DNA of 11,571 nucleotides. Source: a virus. Within the stretch, counting starts at the first letter, position 1. Every line of letters begins with the position of its first letter. Shown here one piece after another: positions 1-11,571 of this stretch. The stretch is taken from UHGV virus genome UHGV-0116702, one strand, 5' to 3'. The translations under genes were made by a program, and so were the position numbers. Below the pieces are notes generated by a model that was not told where the DNA came from, made no database searches, and worked only from the letters and a program-made list of their open reading frames with translations.

Positions 1-57
1 CGAATAGCTTCACTGTGTGGACGTGCTGCATGAACCGGGCGGCTGTCTAAAATCATC

Positions 58-1720
58 AAGGTCTAAATACACTATGAGGATGATTAGGGGTTGGTAGATG
101 ATTCGGATGAAGCATCCTCATTACAAGACCAACTATAGAACTACCTGTTAATAACAGGACAATATCAGGTGAATCCCTATTCAATTTAAAGGCATTTTCC
201 CAAGTATCTAAGCAGTTTTACACAGATTCTATGCAGTATCGGTATAGTCTCTTTTTACCCTAACTTATTGAAATATATAGAGAATCTGTGAAGTCTCTTT
301 TCAGGGAACTATGCAGGGTGTTAGTCGTTCCTCTCTCGACCCTTAGAAAAGTGCTATATACAGGACTATATAACGCTATTCATGCAGTTGGTCACCATAT
401 GTTACAGTTGCAAGAGATAACAATCAGCTATGTGAAAGTTAGGAAGTGATGGTTACAGTTGATTCGGTTAGTTCTAGGAATCAACCTCATAGTTCCTTCG
501 TAGTTCCTCTTAAAAAATCACTTACAGACACCTTAATATCTATACAGATTTCATGTAGAACACGATTAGTGCGTAAAACAGCTATTATGTTAAAAACGCA
601 CTGTATACGTATCAGTACTGATTTATAAGGGTTTTGTGTATTGGATGATAAGAGGCTATGCAGCACCTTGAGAGCATGTCTTCTAAGTCATTGATACATA
701 AGGTCACAGAAGTTTGTGTCTGTTACAGAGAAAACTGGATAGGATTTCACAGAACTATAAAATGTTACAGCTATTGATAGGTTAAATCTTCTTGATAGAT
801 GCTTTGAAGTGTGGTGAAGGTTTCTTGAGGTGGAGCTAAACAGATGCTATGAAGAAAGTCAATGATATTTTAACTGCTTTTGCAAAGGGGGTGCTATATC
901 GTGAATCTGGGGTACTTAACAGCCATCAATTGAGTGTAGATATTTTTTAAGATTATCGGTGAAGGGGAATGTAGAGGGGGGTACTACGATTTTTATAAAA
1001 ATTTTCAGACTCTGAAAAGTTGCTGTACAGATTTTGCACAATCTTACCAAGCCTCATAGAAAGCTCTGTAGCGAGTTTTAACCCCATTTTTAGGGGTAAC
1101 CTGTAGGTATGTACCACCCACCTTAAAATAAAGGGGTAAAATCGCTTAGAATGCGTTACAGAGCGTCTGAGAAGCTATATTCACAGATTTTACTAAAACC
1201 TCAGACTTTCTAAGTGGTCTTTTTAACAGGAGGGGTTCCCCTATGGTCACATATCCCCTCTCTCGCTTAGTGAGCTACACAGACCTAGAGAACATGCTCT
1301 GTAACGCCTTCACAAACATTGACTAAGGTCAACTTCATAAACTCAGAGTTAAGTTACCTTGAAAGATTCTACCAAGAAACTACACAGGTATTATTTAGTC
1401 TGACTGTGAAGAGATGTTTAACGGGAGGAAGAGAACCATGAAAACCGAAGGTAGGTTCTATCTTAACAGTGACTGTAAGAGATACCTGAAAAGATACTTA
1501 ACAGAACTACCAAGAAGAGAGGGAACGATAAAACCAGAGGTAGTGACCTTGTTAAGTAGGTCGTTTCAAAGTCTCTTAAAAGTCTGTTAAGTAAGGGCTA
1601 TGTGAACAATCTTACCATTTTGTCAATGCTTTTGTCTTTGACCTAAATCAATAAAATGTATCGTTTGATGTGCTTTTAAACAAAATAGCTAAAAAATCTT
1701 TTTAGAGGGGCGCTTCGCTT
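58..1720. other. ORF-poor, motif-dense non-coding region (candidate ori / ncRNA / regulatory hub)
   Basis: The six-frame track shows only one 60-aa ORF in 1.66 kb, and it has no RBS. Region contains the conserved box copies at 1063-1075, 1145-1171 and 1296-1308, recurring CTGTGAAGAG and TTACAG/TTAACAG motifs, and a 17-bp perfect palindrome TTTTCAGACTCTGAAAA at about 1003-1019. Confidence 0.5.
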
Positions 1721-2389
1721 GTGTCACATCCAATAATCCATATCGGTCGTTATCATGGTGGTTCTGATGACTGGCGTACACCGTATCGTCTATTTCATAA
1801 CCTGCATCGTGAGTATAGCTTCAGTCTAGATGGTGCTGCAACTGAGCATGACGCATTGTTGCCACGGTTCACCGATGATATTCACAATCAATCATGGGTT
1901 GGTGAACGGGTCTTCGTTAACCCGCCGTTTAGCATGGCTGAACAGTTCCTCCTAAAAGCCCCTGAAGCTGATGTGTGTGTATGTCTGGTTCCGCACAGGT
2001 CAAAGACAACTTACTGGCTTCGGTGTGTATATACAAACCCCTTCCTGCATGAGATTCGAACGTTACACCGAGCGGTTAAATACCTTCCACCAGCAGGAAA
2101 GAGAGGTGTTGTAGCGCGTTCACCGTTTGCAAGTTGCGTTCTGATATACAGGAACACACCCCGTAAACCGAAGGTTGAAGTTACCCAGACAATCTATTGT
2201 GGCGACACAATGCTTTTACTTGCCGTGGTTAACAGGGGTGGTTTACGTGGAAGACCTCATATACACGATGCACAGACGCTTGACAGGTTGATTAAAATGC
2301 ATGACCAAGGGCAATCCATCAAGAGCATCGCAGAATCGCTAAGAATGCCTCTAAGCACCACTTACAGGATTGTTCAAAGGTTGGGCTGA
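1721..2389 (+). CDS. Phage-type N6-adenine DNA methyltransferase (Dam-like) fused to a C-terminal resolvase/invertase-type HTH domain
   Basis: 222-aa ORF with GTG start 10 nt after a GAGGGG Shine-Dalgarno. N-terminal ~155 aa carry DWRTP, LDGAA and the WVGERVFVNPPF motif with the catalytic NPPF tetrapeptide, typical of the small phage Dam family. C-terminal ~60 aa (GRPHIHDAQTLDRLIKMHDQGQSIKSIAESLRMPLSTTYRIV) match the GRP arm plus helix-turn-helix pattern of Hin/resolvase DNA-binding domains. Confidence 0.7.
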   Translation: MSHPIIHIGRYHGGSDDWRTPYRLFHNLHREYSFSLDGAATEHDALLPRFTDDIHNQSWVGERVFVNPPFSMAEQFLLKAPEADVCVCLVPHRSKTTYWLRCVYTNPFLHEIRTLHRAVKYLPPAGKRGVVARSPFASCVLIYRNTPRKPKVEVTQTIYCGDTMLLLAVVNRGGLRGRPHIHDAQTLDRLIKMHDQGQSIKSIAESLRMPLSTTYRIVQRLG

Positions 2390-2428
2390 AATTCTCATAT
2401 AGAGCACTGATTACGAGAATGTTAAAGA

Positions 2429-2462
2429 GGCGATTTCCCCTTTCTGGGGTTATTCGCTTTTT
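2429..2462 (+). terminator. Candidate intrinsic terminator downstream of the methyltransferase gene
   Basis: GGCGATTTCCCCTTTCTGGGGTTATTCGC: nested stems GCGA/TCGC and CCCC/GGGG, followed by TTTTT at 2458-2462. Confidence 0.4.
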
Positions 2463-2597
2463 ACTGGAAGGGTTATTTTACAGAGGTTTTTCAAACCCCC
2501 TCAATAATAGAAACGAGCAACAAACGAAGAGCGAGAAATAAAATATTGAGACTGGTGAACGGGGTCTGTAAAGATTGTTTAAGGGGGCAGTTAAGAA

Positions 2598-2630
2598 GGT
2601 GGCTCTCCCTTTCTGGGGTTATCGCCTTGT
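2598..2630 (+). repeat. Second, degenerate copy of the CCTTTCTGGGGTTAT hairpin motif
   Basis: GGCTCTCCCTTTCTGGGGTTATCGCC shares an ~18-nt core with the hairpin at 2429-2462 but has a weaker T-tract (CTTGTATCTT). Confidence 0.35.
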
Positions 2631-2654
2631 ATCTTAGTGAGTCCAGGAAGTTCT

Positions 2655-2835
2655 CTGTGAAGAGTCTTGTCAGTCCTTTATATTGGGTGATTACAACTCA
2701 TTGAAAAATAAGTGTTTTTAGAATTTACTGTTAAGGTTACAGAGTTAACTGTGAAGAGACTTGTCAGTTCTCTATATATGGCTAATTACAACTAATTGAA
2801 AAATAAGAACTTTTAGAAATTACTGTCAGAGAGGT
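2655..2835. repeat. Two tandem ~94-bp direct repeats (about 85% identity over ~75 bp)
   Basis: Copy 1 starts CTGTGAAGAGTCTTGTCAGTCC at 2655; copy 2 starts CTGTGAAGAGACTTGTCAGTTC at 2749. Both contain ATTACAACT, ATTGAAAAATAAG and TTTTAGAA-TTACTGT. The CTGTGAAGAG head also occurs at 1403-1412 and in variant form at 286-295 and 1468-1477. Confidence 0.6.
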
Positions 2836-2946
2836 GAATACTTGATAGATACAGCTTTCCGGTTCTGTCAAGCTATTTTTTCATAGATAGCACAAAATGC
2901 TAAAGATACCCCTATACCATCTCGTACAGGGGATTTTGGAGGGAGT

Positions 2947-3123
2947 TTAACGGGGGTCTGTGTGGTCATTATCCTTAAGGTCAAGCGTCCATGTATGACC
3001 GAACAGTTTAAAGACAACAAGCACTCTGACAAGGACGTAACGAAGTAGCAGACCTGCAATAAGTCCAATACCTCCACCAGCCCATACATCAGGTGACCCC
3101 AGTTCAGGAGGGAGATTTACCAT
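2947..3123 (-). CDS. Hypothetical small membrane protein (58 aa, one predicted TM helix)
   Basis: ATG at 3123-3121 preceded by AAGGA with 6-nt spacing on the minus strand. Product MVNLPPELGSPDVWAGGGIGLIAGLLLRYVLVRVLVVFKLF... has a glycine-rich hydrophobic stretch. The track ORF 2947-3165 is the same frame extended to a TTG. Divergent from the 3421 operon. Confidence 0.3.
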   Translation of the reverse strand: MVNLPPELGSPDVWAGGGIGLIAGLLLRYVLVRVLVVFKLFGHTWTLDLKDNDHTDPR

Positions 3124-3136
3124 TAGTTTTCCTTGT

Positions 3137-3235
3137 AAGACGCTCTCAATCGCATTCTGACACAAAAAGTACCTGACCTTATGAGTTGACCTTAAGAGGC
3201 TGTTTAACTCGTTACAGAGCGATTGAAGAGGTCTG
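3137..3235. repeat. Inverted-repeat-bracketed element, copy 1 (conserved left and right arms, divergent interior)
   Basis: Left arm AGACGCTCTCAATCGCATTCT (3138-3158); right arm CTGTTTAACTCGTTACAGAGCGATTGAAGAGGTCTG (3200-3235). Arms are imperfect reverse complements sharing GCGATTGAG and GTCTG. Interior contains a doubled TGACCTTA. Confidence 0.55.
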
Positions 3236-3341
3236 TGTGCAATGCAATAACCATGTGACCACTCTCATAGCCACGCCTTTATATTTTACTCTCCCCATAG
3301 AACCATTATACCATAGATGTTAATAAATTGTTAAAAAATGC

Positions 3342-3370
3342 TTGACATTAGTCTTTGAAACTGCTAGTAT
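3342..3370 (+). promoter_or_regulatory. Candidate sigma70-type promoter for the 3421-4658 operon
   Basis: TTGACA (3342-3347), 17-nt spacer, TAGTAT (3365-3370); A/T-rich upstream tract TTAAAAAATG; about 50 nt upstream of the ATG at 3421. Confidence 0.45.
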
Positions 3371-3420
3371 TGTACATATAAGTTAACAGAGAATTAACAA
3401 TTATAAGGACTAGCTTATGA

Positions 3421-3900
3421 ATGAACGACAGAGAATTTAGAGCGATGCTTCAGGCATCAAGAGAACGCAAAGGCATTGACGAAGTAATTCGGGCAATTAC
3501 ACCGAGGAGTCGTTATATGCCAACCAGAAAGAGCACCCAGAACACTATTAAAAATTATTTGGCTAACTTCGACAGCTACGAGCAACTACCAAGTAAGCTT
3601 GATGATATTTTCATTGGATTCTGTAGAAGTGAAGGCCACCCGAAATACAACAAAAAACTATTTTATCTTCTAAAGAATCTTGACGAAATTAACTCAGCTA
3701 CCGTGACAAATTATCTTCAGCGACAAGCAACCAGACTTAGTTATGAATTACCAAGCGATAAATATTGTGCATTGCTTGCTGTAATGTGTGCAAAGCTAAT
3801 TGGTATTGTTGAACATCATATTGCCGTTGGTAATATTGAGCCAATGGAAAACGAGCAACCAGACTTTGAGTTTGACCCGTATATTTTGGAGGAATTTTAA
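3421..3900 (+). CDS. Hypothetical protein (159 aa) with acidic C-terminal tail
   Basis: ATG with AAGGA SD about 11 nt upstream; first gene after the candidate promoter; ends ...ENEQPDFEFDPYILEEF. No family recognised by eye. Confidence 0.6.
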   Translation: MNDREFRAMLQASRERKGIDEVIRAITPRSRYMPTRKSTQNTIKNYLANFDSYEQLPSKLDDIFIGFCRSEGHPKYNKKLFYLLKNLDEINSATVTNYLQRQATRLSYELPSDKYCALLAVMCAKLIGIVEHHIAVGNIEPMENEQPDFEFDPYILEEF

Positions 3901-4692: not shown

Positions 4693-4816
4693 CTCAGACG
4701 CTCTCAATCGCATTCTAACGCAAAAAACTATCTTATTTTAGGGTGGGTAATACCACTGTACAGGCTACCCCTGAAAAAGACTGTTTAGCTCGTTACAGAG
4801 CGATTGAGGAGGTCTG
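4693..4816. repeat. Inverted-repeat-bracketed element, copy 2
   Basis: Left arm CAGACGCTCTCAATCGCATTCT (4695-4716); right arm CTGTTTAGCTCGTTACAGAGCGATTGAGGAGGTCTG (4781-4816). Arms are nearly identical to copy 1 (right arm 35/37) while the interior differs in sequence and length. Ends 22 nt before the ATG at 4838. Confidence 0.55.
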
Positions 4817-4837
4817 GTAAAAAGGAGATTTTAGGAA

Positions 4838-6804: not shown

Positions 6805-8985
6805 ATGAGCAAATTCACAGTTGATAGTTTTATCGTTGAACTAGGCTTCAATGAAAACGTTATTAAGGGCTTGCAAAGAGTTGAAAAGGCAGCTTTGCAG
6901 TCAGCACAAAGAATTGAACGTAATTTGAATAGAGCGTTTAAGGTCGATACCAAGCAACTTGACAGCAACCTGACAAGTTCTTTAGGGCAACTTGAAAGGA
7001 AGTTTAATAAGACCTTTGACAAGATTGAACAGAGAGCAAGAAATACTAAAGCTTTCCAGTTTACCACCAGATTTAATGACACTGTTAATCCTCCAAAACA
7101 ACCGAGACAGCCACGAATTAGCGGCAACAGAGCAATCACAGCAGCGCATAGCGTGAATATGTCTAAGCTTGGTGATATTAATCCGCTGATGGCTAAAATG
7201 TTTAAAGCACAGTATTACAGCTTAAGCGGTAAGGCTGGTAATATTGGAAGTGAAAAGTTTAACGCTGAACTTGCAAAATTAAATCAATCTCTTCGTGAAA
7301 CGTTGAATAAACTCAGGTCACAGACAAAGACCACCAGCATTAACAATACAAGCGACGCATTTAATAATCTTGCAAGCAATGCAATCAAGTTATCTGGTGC
7401 ATTTTACTCTGTGATGGGTGCTCTTAACGCTTACAAGGCCATTATGAATGCAGGTCTTAAACGAGATTCCGCACAGAGAGCCGCTAAGTTTGTACTTGGT
7501 GATAAAGCATCTGAAGCTGAGGTATTTATTCGAAATTTAGCAGACAAGACAGGTCTTAATATCTCTGAAGGGCTATCAAGCTACGCTAAGTTTGCAGCAG
7601 GTGCTCAGGGTTCTATGTCACAGGAACAGACACAGGAGCTATTTGGTAATGCAACGGCTATGAGTCGCTTAATGGGGCTTTCTAACGATGAGCTAAACGG
7701 CATTTTGAAAGCATTTGAGCAGATGGCGAGCAAGGGCAAGATTCAGGCTGAAGAGCTTCGTGGACAGTTAGGTGACCGTATGGCTGGTGCATTTAAGCTA
7801 TTCGCTGAAGCATTGGGTATGACTGCTACAGAGCTTGATAAAGCGATGAAAGACGGGAAGATTTTAAGTAGTGATACTCTCCCTAAAGTCGCTAAACAGA
7901 TGGGCTTGATGATTGATAAAGCGGGTGGCTGGGCTGAAGTCGCTAAGAGCACTCAGACAGCTTTAGGGAAACTGGCTAACAACTGGGATGATACGATGGT
8001 GAAAATCTTCTCAGGTTCACAGGATGAGCTAAACGGCTTCTTATCCAGCCTGAGTAACCTGCTTAGTGAAATGGGGATGAGTTCATCTATCGCTGGTGAT
8101 GCTATCGGTGGACTTATCGACATGCTTAAAGCTGGTGTGGATGACATCCGTATCTTTAACAATCACCTTGAAGGCTGGATTCTACAGACTAAGAAGTTCT
8201 ATTACAGCCTTGATGACACTAAACGAAAACTACTTGATGAAGTCGGTGATGGTTTTATCAACTTCGTCAAAGGTCTTGCTATAGCGTTATCTGCAAAGAC
8301 ACTATTCAGTGCTGCTACAGGGGTTATAAACCTGACAAGAGCAATCACAACGTTAGGTACAAGAGCTAATCAGGTTGCTGGTCAGGTAGCTACTGGTAAA
8401 GGTGGTGGAAAACTGAAAGGTGTAGCTGGTGGTGTAGGTAGTGCTCTTGCAATTGGTTATGCTGATGACGGTTATGAAACAGCGTTAGCATTAGCTTCAA
8501 TGATTCCACAAATCAGAGGCGTCACTCTTGGTTTATATGCATTGAAGAAAGCACTGGATTTTATGAATCAGGAAGTAGTCAAAAACGCTAATATGCATCC
8601 ATCTGGGGTAGGTGTGGGTAGTGACTTTAATCCCGTGTATTCTGGTGACCCTAATAAACCGAATATGATTAACGAAGGATGGGGTAGAATTTTTAGTTCA
8701 ATGGGTGAATTGTTTAACAATGCCACAATGAATATTGCAAGATTCAATCATCCAGAGTTAAACAACATTAAGCAAGATTCAGCATTAACGAGTGCAGATA
8801 TTCAGAGTCTGAGGGATGAAATCTCTGCTTTAAGTAAGCGTATTCAGGAGCCTGTGAAAGTTTCCTTGGGTGGTGAAGTTGCCATTAAACCAGATGAAAC
8901 CAGCTTTATGACCTTTAGCAGTAATATCTACGACCAATATGCAGAAGCTACGCTATTAAGTTCATCATTCCCAGAAGATGATTGA
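6805..8985 (+). CDS. Phage tail tape-measure-domain protein (726 aa)
   Basis: N-terminal coiled-coil-like segment, then LNGILKAFEQMASKGKIQAEELRGQLGDRMAGAFKLFAEALGMTATELDKAMKDGKILSSDTLPKVAKQMG, which matches the conserved tape-measure core. Downstream there are glycine-rich hydrophobic stretches (ATGKGGGKLKGVAGGVGSALAIGYA). SD AAGAGG is about 13 nt upstream. Confidence 0.7.
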   Translation: MSKFTVDSFIVELGFNENVIKGLQRVEKAALQSAQRIERNLNRAFKVDTKQLDSNLTSSLGQLERKFNKTFDKIEQRARNTKAFQFTTRFNDTVNPPKQPRQPRISGNRAITAAHSVNMSKLGDINPLMAKMFKAQYYSLSGKAGNIGSEKFNAELAKLNQSLRETLNKLRSQTKTTSINNTSDAFNNLASNAIKLSGAFYSVMGALNAYKAIMNAGLKRDSAQRAAKFVLGDKASEAEVFIRNLADKTGLNISEGLSSYAKFAAGAQGSMSQEQTQELFGNATAMSRLMGLSNDELNGILKAFEQMASKGKIQAEELRGQLGDRMAGAFKLFAEALGMTATELDKAMKDGKILSSDTLPKVAKQMGLMIDKAGGWAEVAKSTQTALGKLANNWDDTMVKIFSGSQDELNGFLSSLSNLLSEMGMSSSIAGDAIGGLIDMLKAGVDDIRIFNNHLEGWILQTKKFYYSLDDTKRKLLDEVGDGFINFVKGLAIALSAKTLFSAATGVINLTRAITTLGTRANQVAGQVATGKGGGKLKGVAGGVGSALAIGYADDGYETALALASMIPQIRGVTLGLYALKKALDFMNQEVVKNANMHPSGVGVGSDFNPVYSGDPNKPNMINEGWGRIFSSMGELFNNATMNIARFNHPELNNIKQDSALTSADIQSLRDEISALSKRIQEPVKVSLGGEVAIKPDETSFMTFSSNIYDQYAEATLLSSSFPEDD

Positions 8986-9010
8986 TTTAACGGTGTTCTA
9001 CGTGAATAAA

Positions 9011-9061
9011 GCAAAGTTAATACCCACACTGAAAAATAGAATTTACGTAGCTCACGCTTAA
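9011..9061 (+). repeat. Direct repeat B (copy of repeat A) immediately downstream of the tape-measure gene
   Basis: GCAAAGTTAATACCCACACTGAAAAATAGAATTTACGTAGCTCACGCTTAA; 48/51 identical to 6737-6787, offset 2274 bp; lies about 80 nt upstream of the ATG at 9142. Confidence 0.8.
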
Positions 9062-9141
9062 CAGAGAAAATACTTATATATCAAAGGCTTGGTTAAAAAT
9101 GATTAAAATACACTAAGCCTTTGAAATCAAAGGAGAATTTA

Positions 9142-9930
9142 ATGATTTTTAGCAATCAAATCCGCTACAGTGGCAAAGATGGCGTTTACTTCCACTTAAG
9201 AGATAATGTAGATGCCTTCTTAACCTTATCAGCAACTGAGAACATGGAATTTGATAGCCCTATGCAGGTGACTACACAGAACATGCAATCAGGGCAAACC
9301 GTCACAGATAATGTGCAAAGAGCACCCAGAACAATCACTATTAGCGGTGTCGTTGTAGTTGGCTATGAAGGGAGCTTATTATTAACTCGTCAGGGTCAAT
9401 TAGTAGAGAACTTCATCGACACTCTTGAAAACTGGCGTGACCAGAAACAAATTATTTCGGTCATCTGTAAAGACGGAATTAAAATTGATGATTCCATTAT
9501 CACAAGTTTTAAAGCCTCTAAAGATGTTGGAATTTCAAACGGATTAAGAATCCAACTAACTTTTCAGGAAATTAACTTCAGAGCTGTTGTGGGGCAGACT
9601 GATATCTCGGCTGCAACTGGAAAAGCCGCGACTACGAACGATGGTGGTGTGACCAGTAAGAAGAATGCAGGTAACGTGACCACTGAACGCAATAACGCGC
9701 CTATGCTATCGTGCAAAGAGCTAATGAGTATTAGCGATGTATCCGGTTACGCTCCAGCTATCAGAAATGATATTCTCGATGCTCAGATTAAGTGTAATAA
9801 GGCTTGGAAGCTGGACTATTCAGACTTAACAGAAGCTGAAAAAACCAACGTCACCAATGCTAATAGTAACGCTGGTCGGGTAGCTTCAAAGCTTAAAAAG
9901 TACTCAGTGAACCCTCACAAAAAATACTAA
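9142..9930 (+). CDS. Hypothetical protein (262 aa); possibly tail-associated on positional grounds only
   Basis: ATG 6 nt after AAGGAG SD; the track ORF from 9121 is the same frame from an upstream TTG. Sits directly after the tape-measure gene, where siphophages usually encode the distal tail protein, but I see no diagnostic motif. Confidence 0.55.
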
Positions 9931-11450
9931 ATCTCTACTACATCAACATCTATTAAACCCCTCTCAGTGACTTCAGAAAGCGACTGTATAGCCTCTGTAA
10001 CGTCCTCTGAGGGGTTTTCTGTTATTGATAAGGTGATTGACTTACCATTGTGAAAAGTTACTTTACAGCGACGTTTAGCAGTATTTAAAACGACCTCTTT
10101 AACAGCACTTTTGATTATCAGTTGTGCTTCAATTCTCCCCGCCTTTGTAGTCAAGTCACAATCAGACAAACACCCCACATCAATAGATTTAAGGCGTTGT
10201 GTCTCCTTCTCGATATCCGCATCAACCTGTGATAGCTCACCTTTTAACTGCTTTAGTTTGATGGTAATAGCTGACAAATCTTCAATTTCAAGTGATAGCT
10301 GTACCAGCTTTTCAATATTGCTTGAGATGTGTTCACGGTGTAGCCTCAACATATCTATGGTATTCGTCGTATCGCTATCAAATCGGTCAAGACGAGATAG
10401 CAGAGTAAGCAATGTACCATCGGTTTGCTTACGTGAAAGTCCTTTAGCACTACAACGGTTTTCATTACGAAGAGGACAACGATAAATCCCGTTTCTTGTA
10501 TCACTAAAGCCTGTGATAATCAGAGCATGACCACATTCAGAACAACGGATAACACCTTTAAAGAGATTCACACTCAATGGTTTATCTGAAACAGACCTCT
10601 TTCCATAACGAGAATGTGATAGTTGTTGAACTTTGTAGAATGTTGTTTCATCTATAATTGCAGGATAATAACCAGCTATCTCCTCACAGCCTTTAGGTGT
10701 GAAGTAACCAATTACAGAGCGATTCTTCAGAAGGTCTTGTACTGAGGTTTGACCAAACTTACCAGCTTTATATTGGTTAAGCGTCTGGTGACCTTCATCA
10801 TTAAGAGTCCTGACAATCGCCCAGATAGATTTGCCCTCTAACCGTAGCTGAAAGCACCTCTTCACAGTTTCTACCTTCTCAGGTATTACAGAGAAGCTTT
10901 TACGGTCATCATTCAGCCTTAACCATGCAGGACAACGCCTAGAAATCTTGATACCAGCTTTAGCAGCTTCTTTCTTTGCATCCCATGCAGCTTGTATACG
11001 CTCAGCCTTACGTAATGATTCCTCATGCGCCCTTTGCATTATCAGAATGCTTTTAATCAGGGATAACGGGTCTCTTAAGCTTTCCTTTGTGTAATGTTCA
11101 CCATCGGACAAGGTGACTACATCTACACCAGAGCGAAGAATGTTTCGTAATAGCTCACTTGCTCGGTCTACGGCCTGACGTGACAAACGGTCTAAACTCT
11201 CGATTAGTAGTGTATCACCAGCTTTAACAAGCCCTTTCTCGATAGCGGTTAAAAAGTCACCTAAGCCACCTTTCAAGTGCTTACCAGTGAATCCACTCAC
11301 ACCTAAATCACGGAAGGATAAATCTTGGTCAAGGTAGTACTCAGGTTGAGCCTTAAGCCAGTCATTAACCATCTTAGACTGTCTGCGTAGTGAATCACCT
11401 CGGGATTGCTTCTCAGATGAAAACCTGATGTAAGAAATGGCACGTTTCAT
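9927..11450 (-). CDS. Large serine recombinase (integrase, 507 aa)
   Basis: N-terminal resolvase-type catalytic domain with the nucleophile motif YIRFSSEKQ and arginines in DRLSR; central recombinase region; Cys-rich zinc ribbon CSECGH...[11 protein letters not shown]; C-terminal coiled-coil-like segment. GAGGTG SD 4 nt before the ATG. Confidence 0.9.
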
Positions 11451-11476
11451 TGTTCACCTCAAAACTGATGCCCTAG

Positions 11477-11505
11477 ATTGTATCGTTTTAGATGGTGTAT
11501 TTAAA
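11477..11505 (-). promoter_or_regulatory. Candidate promoter for the recombinase gene
   Basis: On the minus strand: TTTAAA, 17-nt spacer, TACAAT, about 25 nt upstream of the recombinase ATG. The -35 is weak. Confidence 0.3.
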
Positions 11506-11571
11506 CGTGTCTAATAAAAATCACCCGATTAACGCCGCGCTGATGTAAACCGCGATTAAGCGTTTGTTCCT

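Follow-up and report, generated by a model that had tools for sequence, protein, structure and literature searches.

Homology between a gene-free region of an Escherichia coli island and the terminal-repeat region of Felix O1-like phages

We analyzed a stretch of 11,571 nucleotides (UHGV virus genome UHGV-0116702; hereafter, the window), which contains an island of 11,460 bp inserted in the yecE gene of Escherichia coli by a large serine recombinase. The island begins with a region that has no credible genes (57-1720). By homology this region is a copy, diverged in sequence and rearranged, of the gene-free DNA in which the genomes of the virulent Felix O1-like phages (Felixounavirus) have their ends. 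Through this region the island, an apparently phage-parasitic element, is probably handled by Felix O1-like phages, with packaging as the most likely mode. Our literature searches turned up neither a Felixounavirus satellite nor this yecE island family, and the best-supported reading of our finding is a satellite that copies the packaging region of its helper: the idea is known, while the family is undescribed in the literature found. The more specific proposal, that the region is a cis-acting mimic of the concatemer junction of the helper phage and is used for packaging, has in our judgment an even chance of being correct. We hold the same balanced view of the proposal that the island depends on Felixounavirus phages and that 57-1720 would be its cis-acting "phage interface".

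The gene-free region and its phage counterpart

The original prediction described a 1.66-kb stretch without a credible open reading frame (ORF), and this description was confirmed: no ORF at 57-1720 is conserved, and the first conserved gene starts at 1721. Nine ORFs of at least 40 amino acids (aa) are present in 58-1720, none of which is intact across nine homologous islands. In most of the homologues fetched, PGAP annotates no coding sequence in the counterpart of 58-1720, the exceptions being inserted genes, and the ORF-free region has no period-3 signal. The ORF at 1438-1590 (50 aa), which is preceded by a good GGGAGG ribosome-binding site, was rejected: in eight of the nine homologues, including one from which the segment is missing altogether, its ATG is lost or its frame is broken, and the matching frame of the phage is interrupted by a stop. 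The remaining ORFs of at least 40 aa were also rejected, as they are not intact in the homologues.

Felixounavirus genomes have an ORF-free region of about 1.7 kb located between convergent genes. The ends of the virion DNA lie within it, in the form of the direct terminal repeat (DTR). The sizes of the DTRs are 608-618 bp. The 608-bp repeat of UAB_Phi87 was located experimentally with Bal31 digests and run-off sequencing (PMC4837284), and the annotation of UAB_69 places the DTR at 14626-15243, centrally within the ORF-free region; the GenBank records of NBEco005 and NBEco004 start at most 2 nt from the same left/right ends. The phage region is built of degenerate tandem units of 10-11 nt, for example, CTTGTTAG, CTGTTAAG and CTATAAAG. 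Below, the ORF-free DNA to the left and to the right of the DTR is referred to as segments X and Y, respectively.

A BLASTN screen of positions 1-1800 against 50,697 phage records with sensitive settings yielded, besides matches of the yecE flank to Stx prophages, only matches to Felixounavirus, all of them in un-annotated phage DNA. The segment 1495-1571 is 79-85% identical to eight Felixounavirus genomes, and the BLASTN matches of the whole window are confined to 833-1602. An nhmmer search of the entire 11.5-kb window (both strands, filters off) with a profile built from the phage region found two significant matches only, at 841-1043 (E 1.2e-7) and 1498-1616 (E 2.1e-7). The reverse search, with a profile built from nine islands against the whole genome of UAB_69 (87,060 bp), also produced just two significant matches: 14711-14990, inside the DTR, and 15145-15346, spanning its right end. 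Of the functions suggested originally, a packaging or recognition region is the one we favor; the only detectable homologue in the 87-kb Felixounavirus genome is the DTR region, and the reciprocal search agrees.

The two matches define two homologous blocks on the plus strand. Block B (841-1043) corresponds to the right end of the Felixounavirus DTR and the first 100 nt or so beyond it (BLASTN E 3e-9; nhmmer E 1.2e-7; reciprocal E 7e-5; E 2.8e-15 for the related metagenome contig L020). Alignment A2 contains the shared blocks GATATTTTAA..TGCAAAGGGG, GGGnTAC..A.CAG, AGATATTTTT and TTTTATAAAAATTTT.A.A.TCTGAA, and the right terminus of the phage aligns at about 920-925 of the window. In this block the variants KFu019 and L020 are closer to the phage than the window is, L020 having 25 identical nucleotides. 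Block A (approximately 1307-1616) corresponds to the interior of the DTR (UAB_69 14711-14990), with the core GGGAACGATAAAACCAGAGGTAGTGACCTTGTTAA at about 1519-1553; the island profile gives E 1.5e-7 over approximately 1307-1616, and the phage profile gives E 2.1e-7 over 1498-1616. A tentative counterpart of the left DTR junction lies at 1565-1626 on the plus strand, which is the best match in the window for the 70-mer of the phage left terminus (local alignment score 17.5 versus a null of 11.2 +/- 1.3; 0 of 200 shuffles).

The region and its phage counterpart also share an architecture. A sequence periodicity of about 11 nt is significant in 140-833, 833-1043, 1043-1330 and 1330-1640 (500-833 taken alone is not significant) and likewise in the phage segments X, DTR and Y. 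For 141-833 the power is 4.12 at 11.19 nt (0 of 500 shuffles), and elsewhere in the island only one of 91 equal-sized windows reaches the level of 140-833. Relative to the rest of the phage genome and of the island, respectively, the density of the heptamer CTGTTAA, the reverse complement of TTAACAG, is raised 9-fold in the phage region and 4-fold in that of the island. The many TTACAG/TTAACAG occurrences noticed originally were borne out against 1000 dinucleotide shuffles: TTA{1,2}CAG was observed 14 times on both strands, compared with 2.0 +/- 1.4 expected (z 8.7), and ACAG 33 times, compared with 15.1 expected. ACAG/TTACAG shows a strand bias throughout the island, with 71 ACAG on the plus strand versus 33 on the minus strand outside the region; CTGTAA/TTACAG has z 5.2 in the coding part.

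The module 141-833, for which no homologue could be detected in the phage, carries most of the plus-strand (T)TA(A)CAG units. An invariant palindrome, CCTGTTAATAACAGG, lies in it at 144-158, and its conservation is uneven, ranging from 53 to 97% per 50-nt bin. Two other motifs of the original prediction survived in part. The sequence CTGTGAAGAG, described as repeated, has just one exact copy inside the region (1404), while the 8-mer CTGTGAAG occurs twice (286 and 1404); the scan for these two found further exact copies outside the region at 2655, 2749 and 10858-10867 (minus strand). The 17-nt palindrome TTTTCAGACTCTGAAAA exists, at 1002-1018 rather than at about 1003-1019. As a conserved feature it was rejected, with the left half alone being conserved: the right arm is replaced in five of the nine homologues, and the phage counterpart does not form a palindrome.

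Identity among ten islands is 92-97% at 201-300 and 501-1000, compared with 83-86% at the start of the adjoining gene for a Dam-like methyltransferase. Parts of 140-1720 were found in 544 (about 10%) of 5426 complete E. coli genomes, at 646 places, all of them chromosomal, with at most four per genome, and the island occurs at several integration sites. Block A (1400-1640) was retained in 405 genomes and block B (833-1043) in 311, and the least retained part was the segment 1050-1310 (178 genomes), which contains the box motifs described below. Proteins related to those of the island are labelled Salmonella, Shigella, E. albertii and E. fergusonii. Scans of GTDB genomes, one with the Dam-like protein and one with a conserved DNA pattern, gave no match.

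Excision and gene content of the island

The window starts with the 3' part of the host gene yecE (DUF72; 1-56, minus strand), in which the attL crossover core AAAATCA occupies 48-54, as seen in a four-way alignment of attB, attL, attR and attP. The left boundary of the island is at about 57, and yecE resumes at 11517. The large serine recombinase is encoded on the minus strand at 9927-11450 and is followed by the attR core AAAATCA at 11517-11523 (whole feature, 9927-11523). When yecE attB of strain K-12, the two junctions of the window and the metagenome contig are aligned, the sequences around AAAATCA follow cleanly the pattern of a serine recombinase. The attP junction was found exactly as predicted on a single contig of a divergent relative, L020 (ERZ1090866 NODE-760; 11,473 nt), which is island-length, has no chromosomal flanks and carries the integrase, attP and the left non-coding region contiguously. 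Since the attP product occurs in nature, the island excises precisely via its serine recombinase. L020 also has a remnant of a Nextera adapter at its 3' end, and its non-coding region is host to a small gene for a resolvase/invertase (2000-2575).

The gene content is linked to Felixounavirus by the pair of genes at 6805-9930 (plus strand), encoding a tape-measure protein (TMP; 726 aa) and a Dit-like/baseplate protein (269 aa). Both have Felixounavirus homologues in the same order: the TMP is 30% identical to that of Felixounavirus (743 aa in UAB_69), and the Dit-like protein is 72% identical to the product of the gene that follows the phage TMP gene. These two are the sole phage-like virion genes recognized in the island, which suggests remodelling of the phage tail or interference with its assembly.

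In the island ORFs, scans against Pfam, PHROGs and NCBIfam and the search of the phage records recognized no capsid, portal, terminase or replication genes. No replication initiator, primase or helicase was recognized in the island, and neither were capsid-size remodelling genes. The island is an integrated element with its own recombinase and precise excision, and because its virion and packaging genes do not make up a full set, a helper would be needed; the earlier guess of a helper-dependent island is supported. The Pfam, PHROGs and NCBIfam scans found in the island ORFs none of the marker genes of the known satellite families, namely, the combination of tyrosine integrase, AlpA and primase-rep of the phage-inducible chromosomal islands (PICIs) and their minimalist relatives (PICMIs), psu/delta/sid/alpha of P4, or RepA_N and TerS of the PICI-like elements (PLEs).

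The gene bounding the ORF-free region (1721-2389, plus strand) encodes a Dam-like N6-adenine methyltransferase fused to HTH_7 and is missing from some relatives. Other products of the island are a short HNH protein and several proteins without a family match. The NCBIfam scan of the island proteins was uninformative, the concatenated small proteins had zero TBLASTN matches in the 50,697 phage records, and sequence searches of PDB with the 236-aa and 159-aa proteins gave no match. The 159-aa product of ORF 3421-3900 lacks 25 internal residues of the consensus of a 184-aa family, which comprises 1100 clusters at 90% identity with the source labels Escherichia, Shigella and Salmonella; all clusters that bear a name are called "hypothetical". 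The AlphaFold model of this family was unusable (predicted local distance difference test score 45.8).

The proposed role in packaging and its alternatives

In replicating phage DNA the DTR region forms the concatemer junction at which the terminase makes the virion ends. Under the proposal of packaging, phage infection would be followed by excision of the island through its serine recombinase and by multimerization of the island DNA. The packaging machinery of the phage would then read the phased array of about 11 nt together with the DTR-like blocks (841-1043 and approximately 1307-1626) as a phage junction. The island DNA would be packaged, probably as a 7-8-mer, which is expected because the ratio of 87 kb to 11.46 kb is 7.6 and no capsid-remodelling gene was recognized. 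Induction by the phage, recognition by its terminase and packaging of concatemers are predicted steps; the homology, the periodic architecture, the constraint on the region, the link of the tail genes to Felixounavirus and the precise excision are what the analysis showed.

A broader version of this proposal is more tentative, and we consider it somewhat less probable than its negation. It states that the region is the packaging signal of an unrecognized and widespread satellite family of Enterobacteriaceae which parasitizes Felix O1-like phages, would be the first natural element to copy a DTR junction rather than a cos or pac site, would be packaged as approximately 7-8-mers and would put its own variants of the tape-measure and baseplate proteins on the hijacked tail.

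Several observations weigh against packaging. The similarity of the island and the phage is low (60-73%), and the order of the blocks is permuted: in the island, block B is about 265 nt upstream of block A, while in the phage, block A is 155 nt upstream of block B. The bases at the right terminus are poorly kept (GGGCTACCAA/GCAG versus GGGTACTTAA/CAGC), and the assignment of the left junction to 1565-1626 is ambiguous, the phage units being repetitive. The region belongs to the DTR region by homology, with two reciprocally significant blocks, and not by a common order or a preserved terminus. A part of the best-conserved stretch (approximately 200-830) has no detectable phage homologue, and the relative L020 has no block A. 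The attP-bearing contig L020 could in principle derive from a tandem array. The attP junction was not found among the viral contigs of IMG/VR, and the conserved-core pattern retrieved from IMG/VR only two contigs, one holding a yecE-integrated relative and the other, covered by an ORF listing, coming from an isolate genome; packaged island DNA was seen in neither of these scans. Finally, the literature contained, as far as we found, no functional study of the non-coding region of Felix O1 or of the sequence requirements of its terminase, and the genome paper of Felix O1 only inferred short terminal repeats.

The same blocks and phased repeats could instead be bound by replication or recombination proteins of the phage, in which case the region would be a helper-dependent replication origin amplifying the island, a role compatible with packaging. 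The lack of a recognized initiator, primase or helicase in the island agrees with this explanation, as do the phasing of the repeats at about 11 nt and the AT-rich block TTTTATAAAAATTTT, which is identical in the phage and the island. Transduction of plasmids by T7 also reportedly needed both a phage origin and the concatemer junction. We nevertheless consider an origin in this region unlikely. The Felixounavirus origin is unmapped, so there is no sequence for comparison, and 58-1720 contains no regular iteron array; the relative L020 has a classic array of four GGTGACATTTTGTCAC copies with a spacing of 22-23 nt (35-116) on the far side of the Dam gene, and the sole long tandem repeat of the window (two copies of about 95 nt) is at 2649-2840. 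If an iteron origin is taken to consist of at least three direct repeats of approximately 17-22 bp with a regular (about 22-bp) spacing, adjoined by an AT-rich stretch and an initiator gene, nothing of the kind is seen in the region: the only arrays that Tandem Repeats Finder detects in 1-2000 are two with 2 copies each, the boxes have inverted orientations and distances of 90-140 nt, and no initiator was recognized. The origin with iterons suggested originally is therefore not upheld for 58-1720. Another possibility, which we regard as quite improbable, is a decoy, with the island serving mainly as an anti-phage defense, the DTR-like DNA titrating or misdirecting the terminase or a protein that binds DNA ends, and with the variant tail proteins poisoning assembly, so that transduction would be unneeded. 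It draws on the same homology, on the TMP as a divergent homologue (30% identity) and on the product of the next gene (72%), and interference with tail assembly is a known defense strategy (PMC11364771). Yet the island excises precisely and exists in an island-length attP form, its spread over several integration sites and 10% of the complete E. coli genomes fits a mobilized element, and PADLOC found no defense match in it besides the orphan methyltransferase.

A role in transcriptional control, in encoding non-coding RNAs or in both is about as doubtful as a decoy; here the box modules would act as divergent promoters or operators, and a long non-coding RNA would be transcribed from the conserved core. 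The box module does recur upstream of ORFs 3421 and 4838 in addition to two inverted copies in the region, and one inverted repeat (1431-1462) shows a compensatory swap. However, the box segment is the least retained part, sigma-70-like sites are as frequent as expected by chance (6 versus 5.8), terminators number zero, and the folding z-scores of the conserved core (+0.18 and -0.49) make it no more stable than shuffled sequences. A search of the whole window against Rfam 15 gave 0 matches at E<=1, a scan of the window for tRNA and tmRNA found none, and the small hairpins in the region are thermodynamically weak; the non-coding RNAs among the original suggestions thus found no support. Such a role would also leave the phage homology and the ~11-nt periodicity unexplained. 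The roles in replication, as a decoy and in regulation or as an RNA may be compatible with one another. The low identity to the phage, the rearranged order, the many indels and small inserts and the tolerance of gene insertions would all fit a captured piece of phage DNA that is decaying without function, but this is very improbable: the core is more conserved than the adjoining coding sequence, its parts are kept in hundreds of genomes at several sites, the periodicity is maintained, and some variants (KFu019 and L020) are more phage-like.

Packaging by means of a copied junction can be compared with several known systems. Helper packaging sequences of the cos type are carried by P4, with P2 as the helper, by cos-type Staphylococcus aureus pathogenicity islands such as SaPIbov5, and by E. 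coli PICIs with lambdoid helpers. In these satellites the copied recognition sequence lets the helper terminase package the satellite DNA; the same would apply here under the proposal of packaging, and the island likewise has no recognized terminase of its own. Their cos sites are short, nearly identical to those of the helper and derived from temperate cos phages, whereas the region described here copies, over 1.6 kb, with 60-73% identity and in rearranged form, a DTR junction from a virulent myovirus, and no capsid-size remodelling genes were recognized in the island. Plasmids with the T7 concatemer junction were reportedly packaged by T7 as genome-length concatemers (Chung and Hinkle, 1990). 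The island resembles them in carrying, by sequence homology, the terminal-repeat junction of a DTR phage; in contrast, those plasmids were laboratory constructs that also needed the T7 origin, while here the blocks are permuted and the Felix O1 system is uncharacterized.

Among natural elements, the PICMI satellites of virulent vibriophages are packaged as concatemers of about eight copies in full-size capsids (PMC10803314). They share with our island the small size, a virulent helper (a proposed one in our case), the lack of capsid remodelling and a similar size ratio (7.6 here, where packaging is presumed). They differ in having a tyrosine integrase, AlpA and a primase, in their location next to fis and in their random (headful-like) ends, with no pac or cos site identified (PMC10803314), while the recombinase of the island is of the serine type, a primase is missing, and tail genes resembling those of the helper occur together with a DTR-like region. 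The PLE of Vibrio cholerae, whose helper is ICP1, likewise combines a large serine recombinase, a virulent myovirus and a long non-coding region with cis elements. PLE also encodes RepA, which goes with an iteron origin, as well as a TerS of its own and a protein for capsid remodelling; the island was found to have none of these, and the two show no sequence relation.

Felix O1-like phages are used in typing of Salmonella and E. coli, in biocontrol and in therapy. In such uses, the yield and host range of the phages and the transfer of genes would be affected by a chromosomal element that occurs in about one tenth of complete E. coli genomes and copies both their genome-end region and two of their tail genes. 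If the proposal of packaging holds, the theft of packaging signals, an idea that stems from temperate cos/pac phages, would extend to a phage that is virulent and has exact terminal repeats. The island is a natural comparator for the terminal region of Felix O1, with the blocks that have been kept, the right junction of the DTR and the core of its interior, as obvious candidates for the parts that matter.

Box modules and variable segments

The three boxes reported originally are all present, as GCTCTGTAGCGAG at 1063-1075 (minus strand), GCGTTACAGAGCG at 1152-1164 (plus strand) and GCTCTGTAACGCC at 1296-1308 (minus strand), though the third one is deleted in five of the nine homologues. With at most two mismatches, CGTTACAGAGCG occurs seven times in the window, compared with 0.35 expected (0 of 200 shuffles); exact copies start at 1154, 3210 and 4791, and inverted near-copies are at 1295-1306 and 1062-1073. 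The boxes are the cores of island-specific modules of 40-95 nt. In the variable box segment (1048-1310) the box cores at 1062-1073 (minus strand), 1154-1165 (plus strand) and 1295-1306 (minus strand) are mutually inverted, 90-140 nt apart and partly dispensable. The exact plus-strand box at 3210-3221 is in the same extended module upstream of ORF 3421, and that at 4791-4802, in a module of about 95 nt, precedes ORF 4838 by 36 nt; 1040-1135 has its inverted twin in the module at 4731-4830. A motif scan did not find the box in the phage genome. The box segment has a marginal inverted match to the DTR (E 0.026), which aligns the boxes with the phage units CCTCTGTAAAGCC and GCTATAGAGAGC. Most likely, the GCGTTACAGAGCG boxes are a second, island-specific layer of operator/promoter modules shared with two downstream gene blocks. 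They are better viewed as such elements than as origin iterons because their 40-95-nt modules lie upstream of ORFs 3421 and 4838 and the phage has no such motif.

In many relatives the box segment is replaced by a gene for an HNH-AP2 endonuclease or by other DNA. In E. coli PSJ-12, where the island is near yciI, an HNH-AP2 homing-endonuclease gene (1199-1723 of that locus), annotated as "AP2/ERF family transcription factor", replaces approximately 1036-1270 of the window and the Dam gene is missing; many genomes have this form. In E. coli MS20645 the segment matching 1040-1230 is replaced, and an ORF of 834 nt (150-983 of that locus), which has a myosin/kinesin family annotation in a related genome, is inserted right after attL.

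The inverted repeat AGAACC..GGTTCT at 1431-1462, which overlaps the non-conserved 50-aa ORF (1438-1590), has given way to GATAC..GTATC in four other islands, where the loop ACC(C)GAAGG(G) is nevertheless retained. The swap counts as a single compensatory change of haplotype, in a hairpin of low thermodynamic stability. At 77-137 there is a nested mini-hairpin insert, GGGGTTGGTA[GATGATTCGGATGAAGCATCCTCATT]ACAAGACCAAC, whose presence varies between islands and which is 87-95% identical to phages NBEco004, NBEco005 and EC106 (BLASTN, 77-140). Such tiny nested palindromic inserts (77-137 and 462-492; for example, TAGGGGTTGGTA..ACAAGCCCAACTA and GATGATTCGG..CATCCTCAT) vary between islands in both presence and orientation, and related ones are found inside the DTRs of NBEco004, NBEco005 and UAB_69 (phage loci L003 3012-3062, L005 approximately 2368-2392 and L019 258-306). 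Because of this variability and of their relatives inside phage DTRs, the mini-inserts resemble miniature mobile elements.

A second ORF-poor stretch (2390-3420) contains the tandem repeat of two copies of about 95 nt (2649-2731 and 2743-2826), each with one CTGTGAAGAG. This stretch may be a candidate place for an origin, given that the iterons of L020 are on the equivalent side of the Dam gene. In the homologous islands PGAP calls a small minus-strand gene (about 60 aa) in the stretch matching 2870-3090 of the window.

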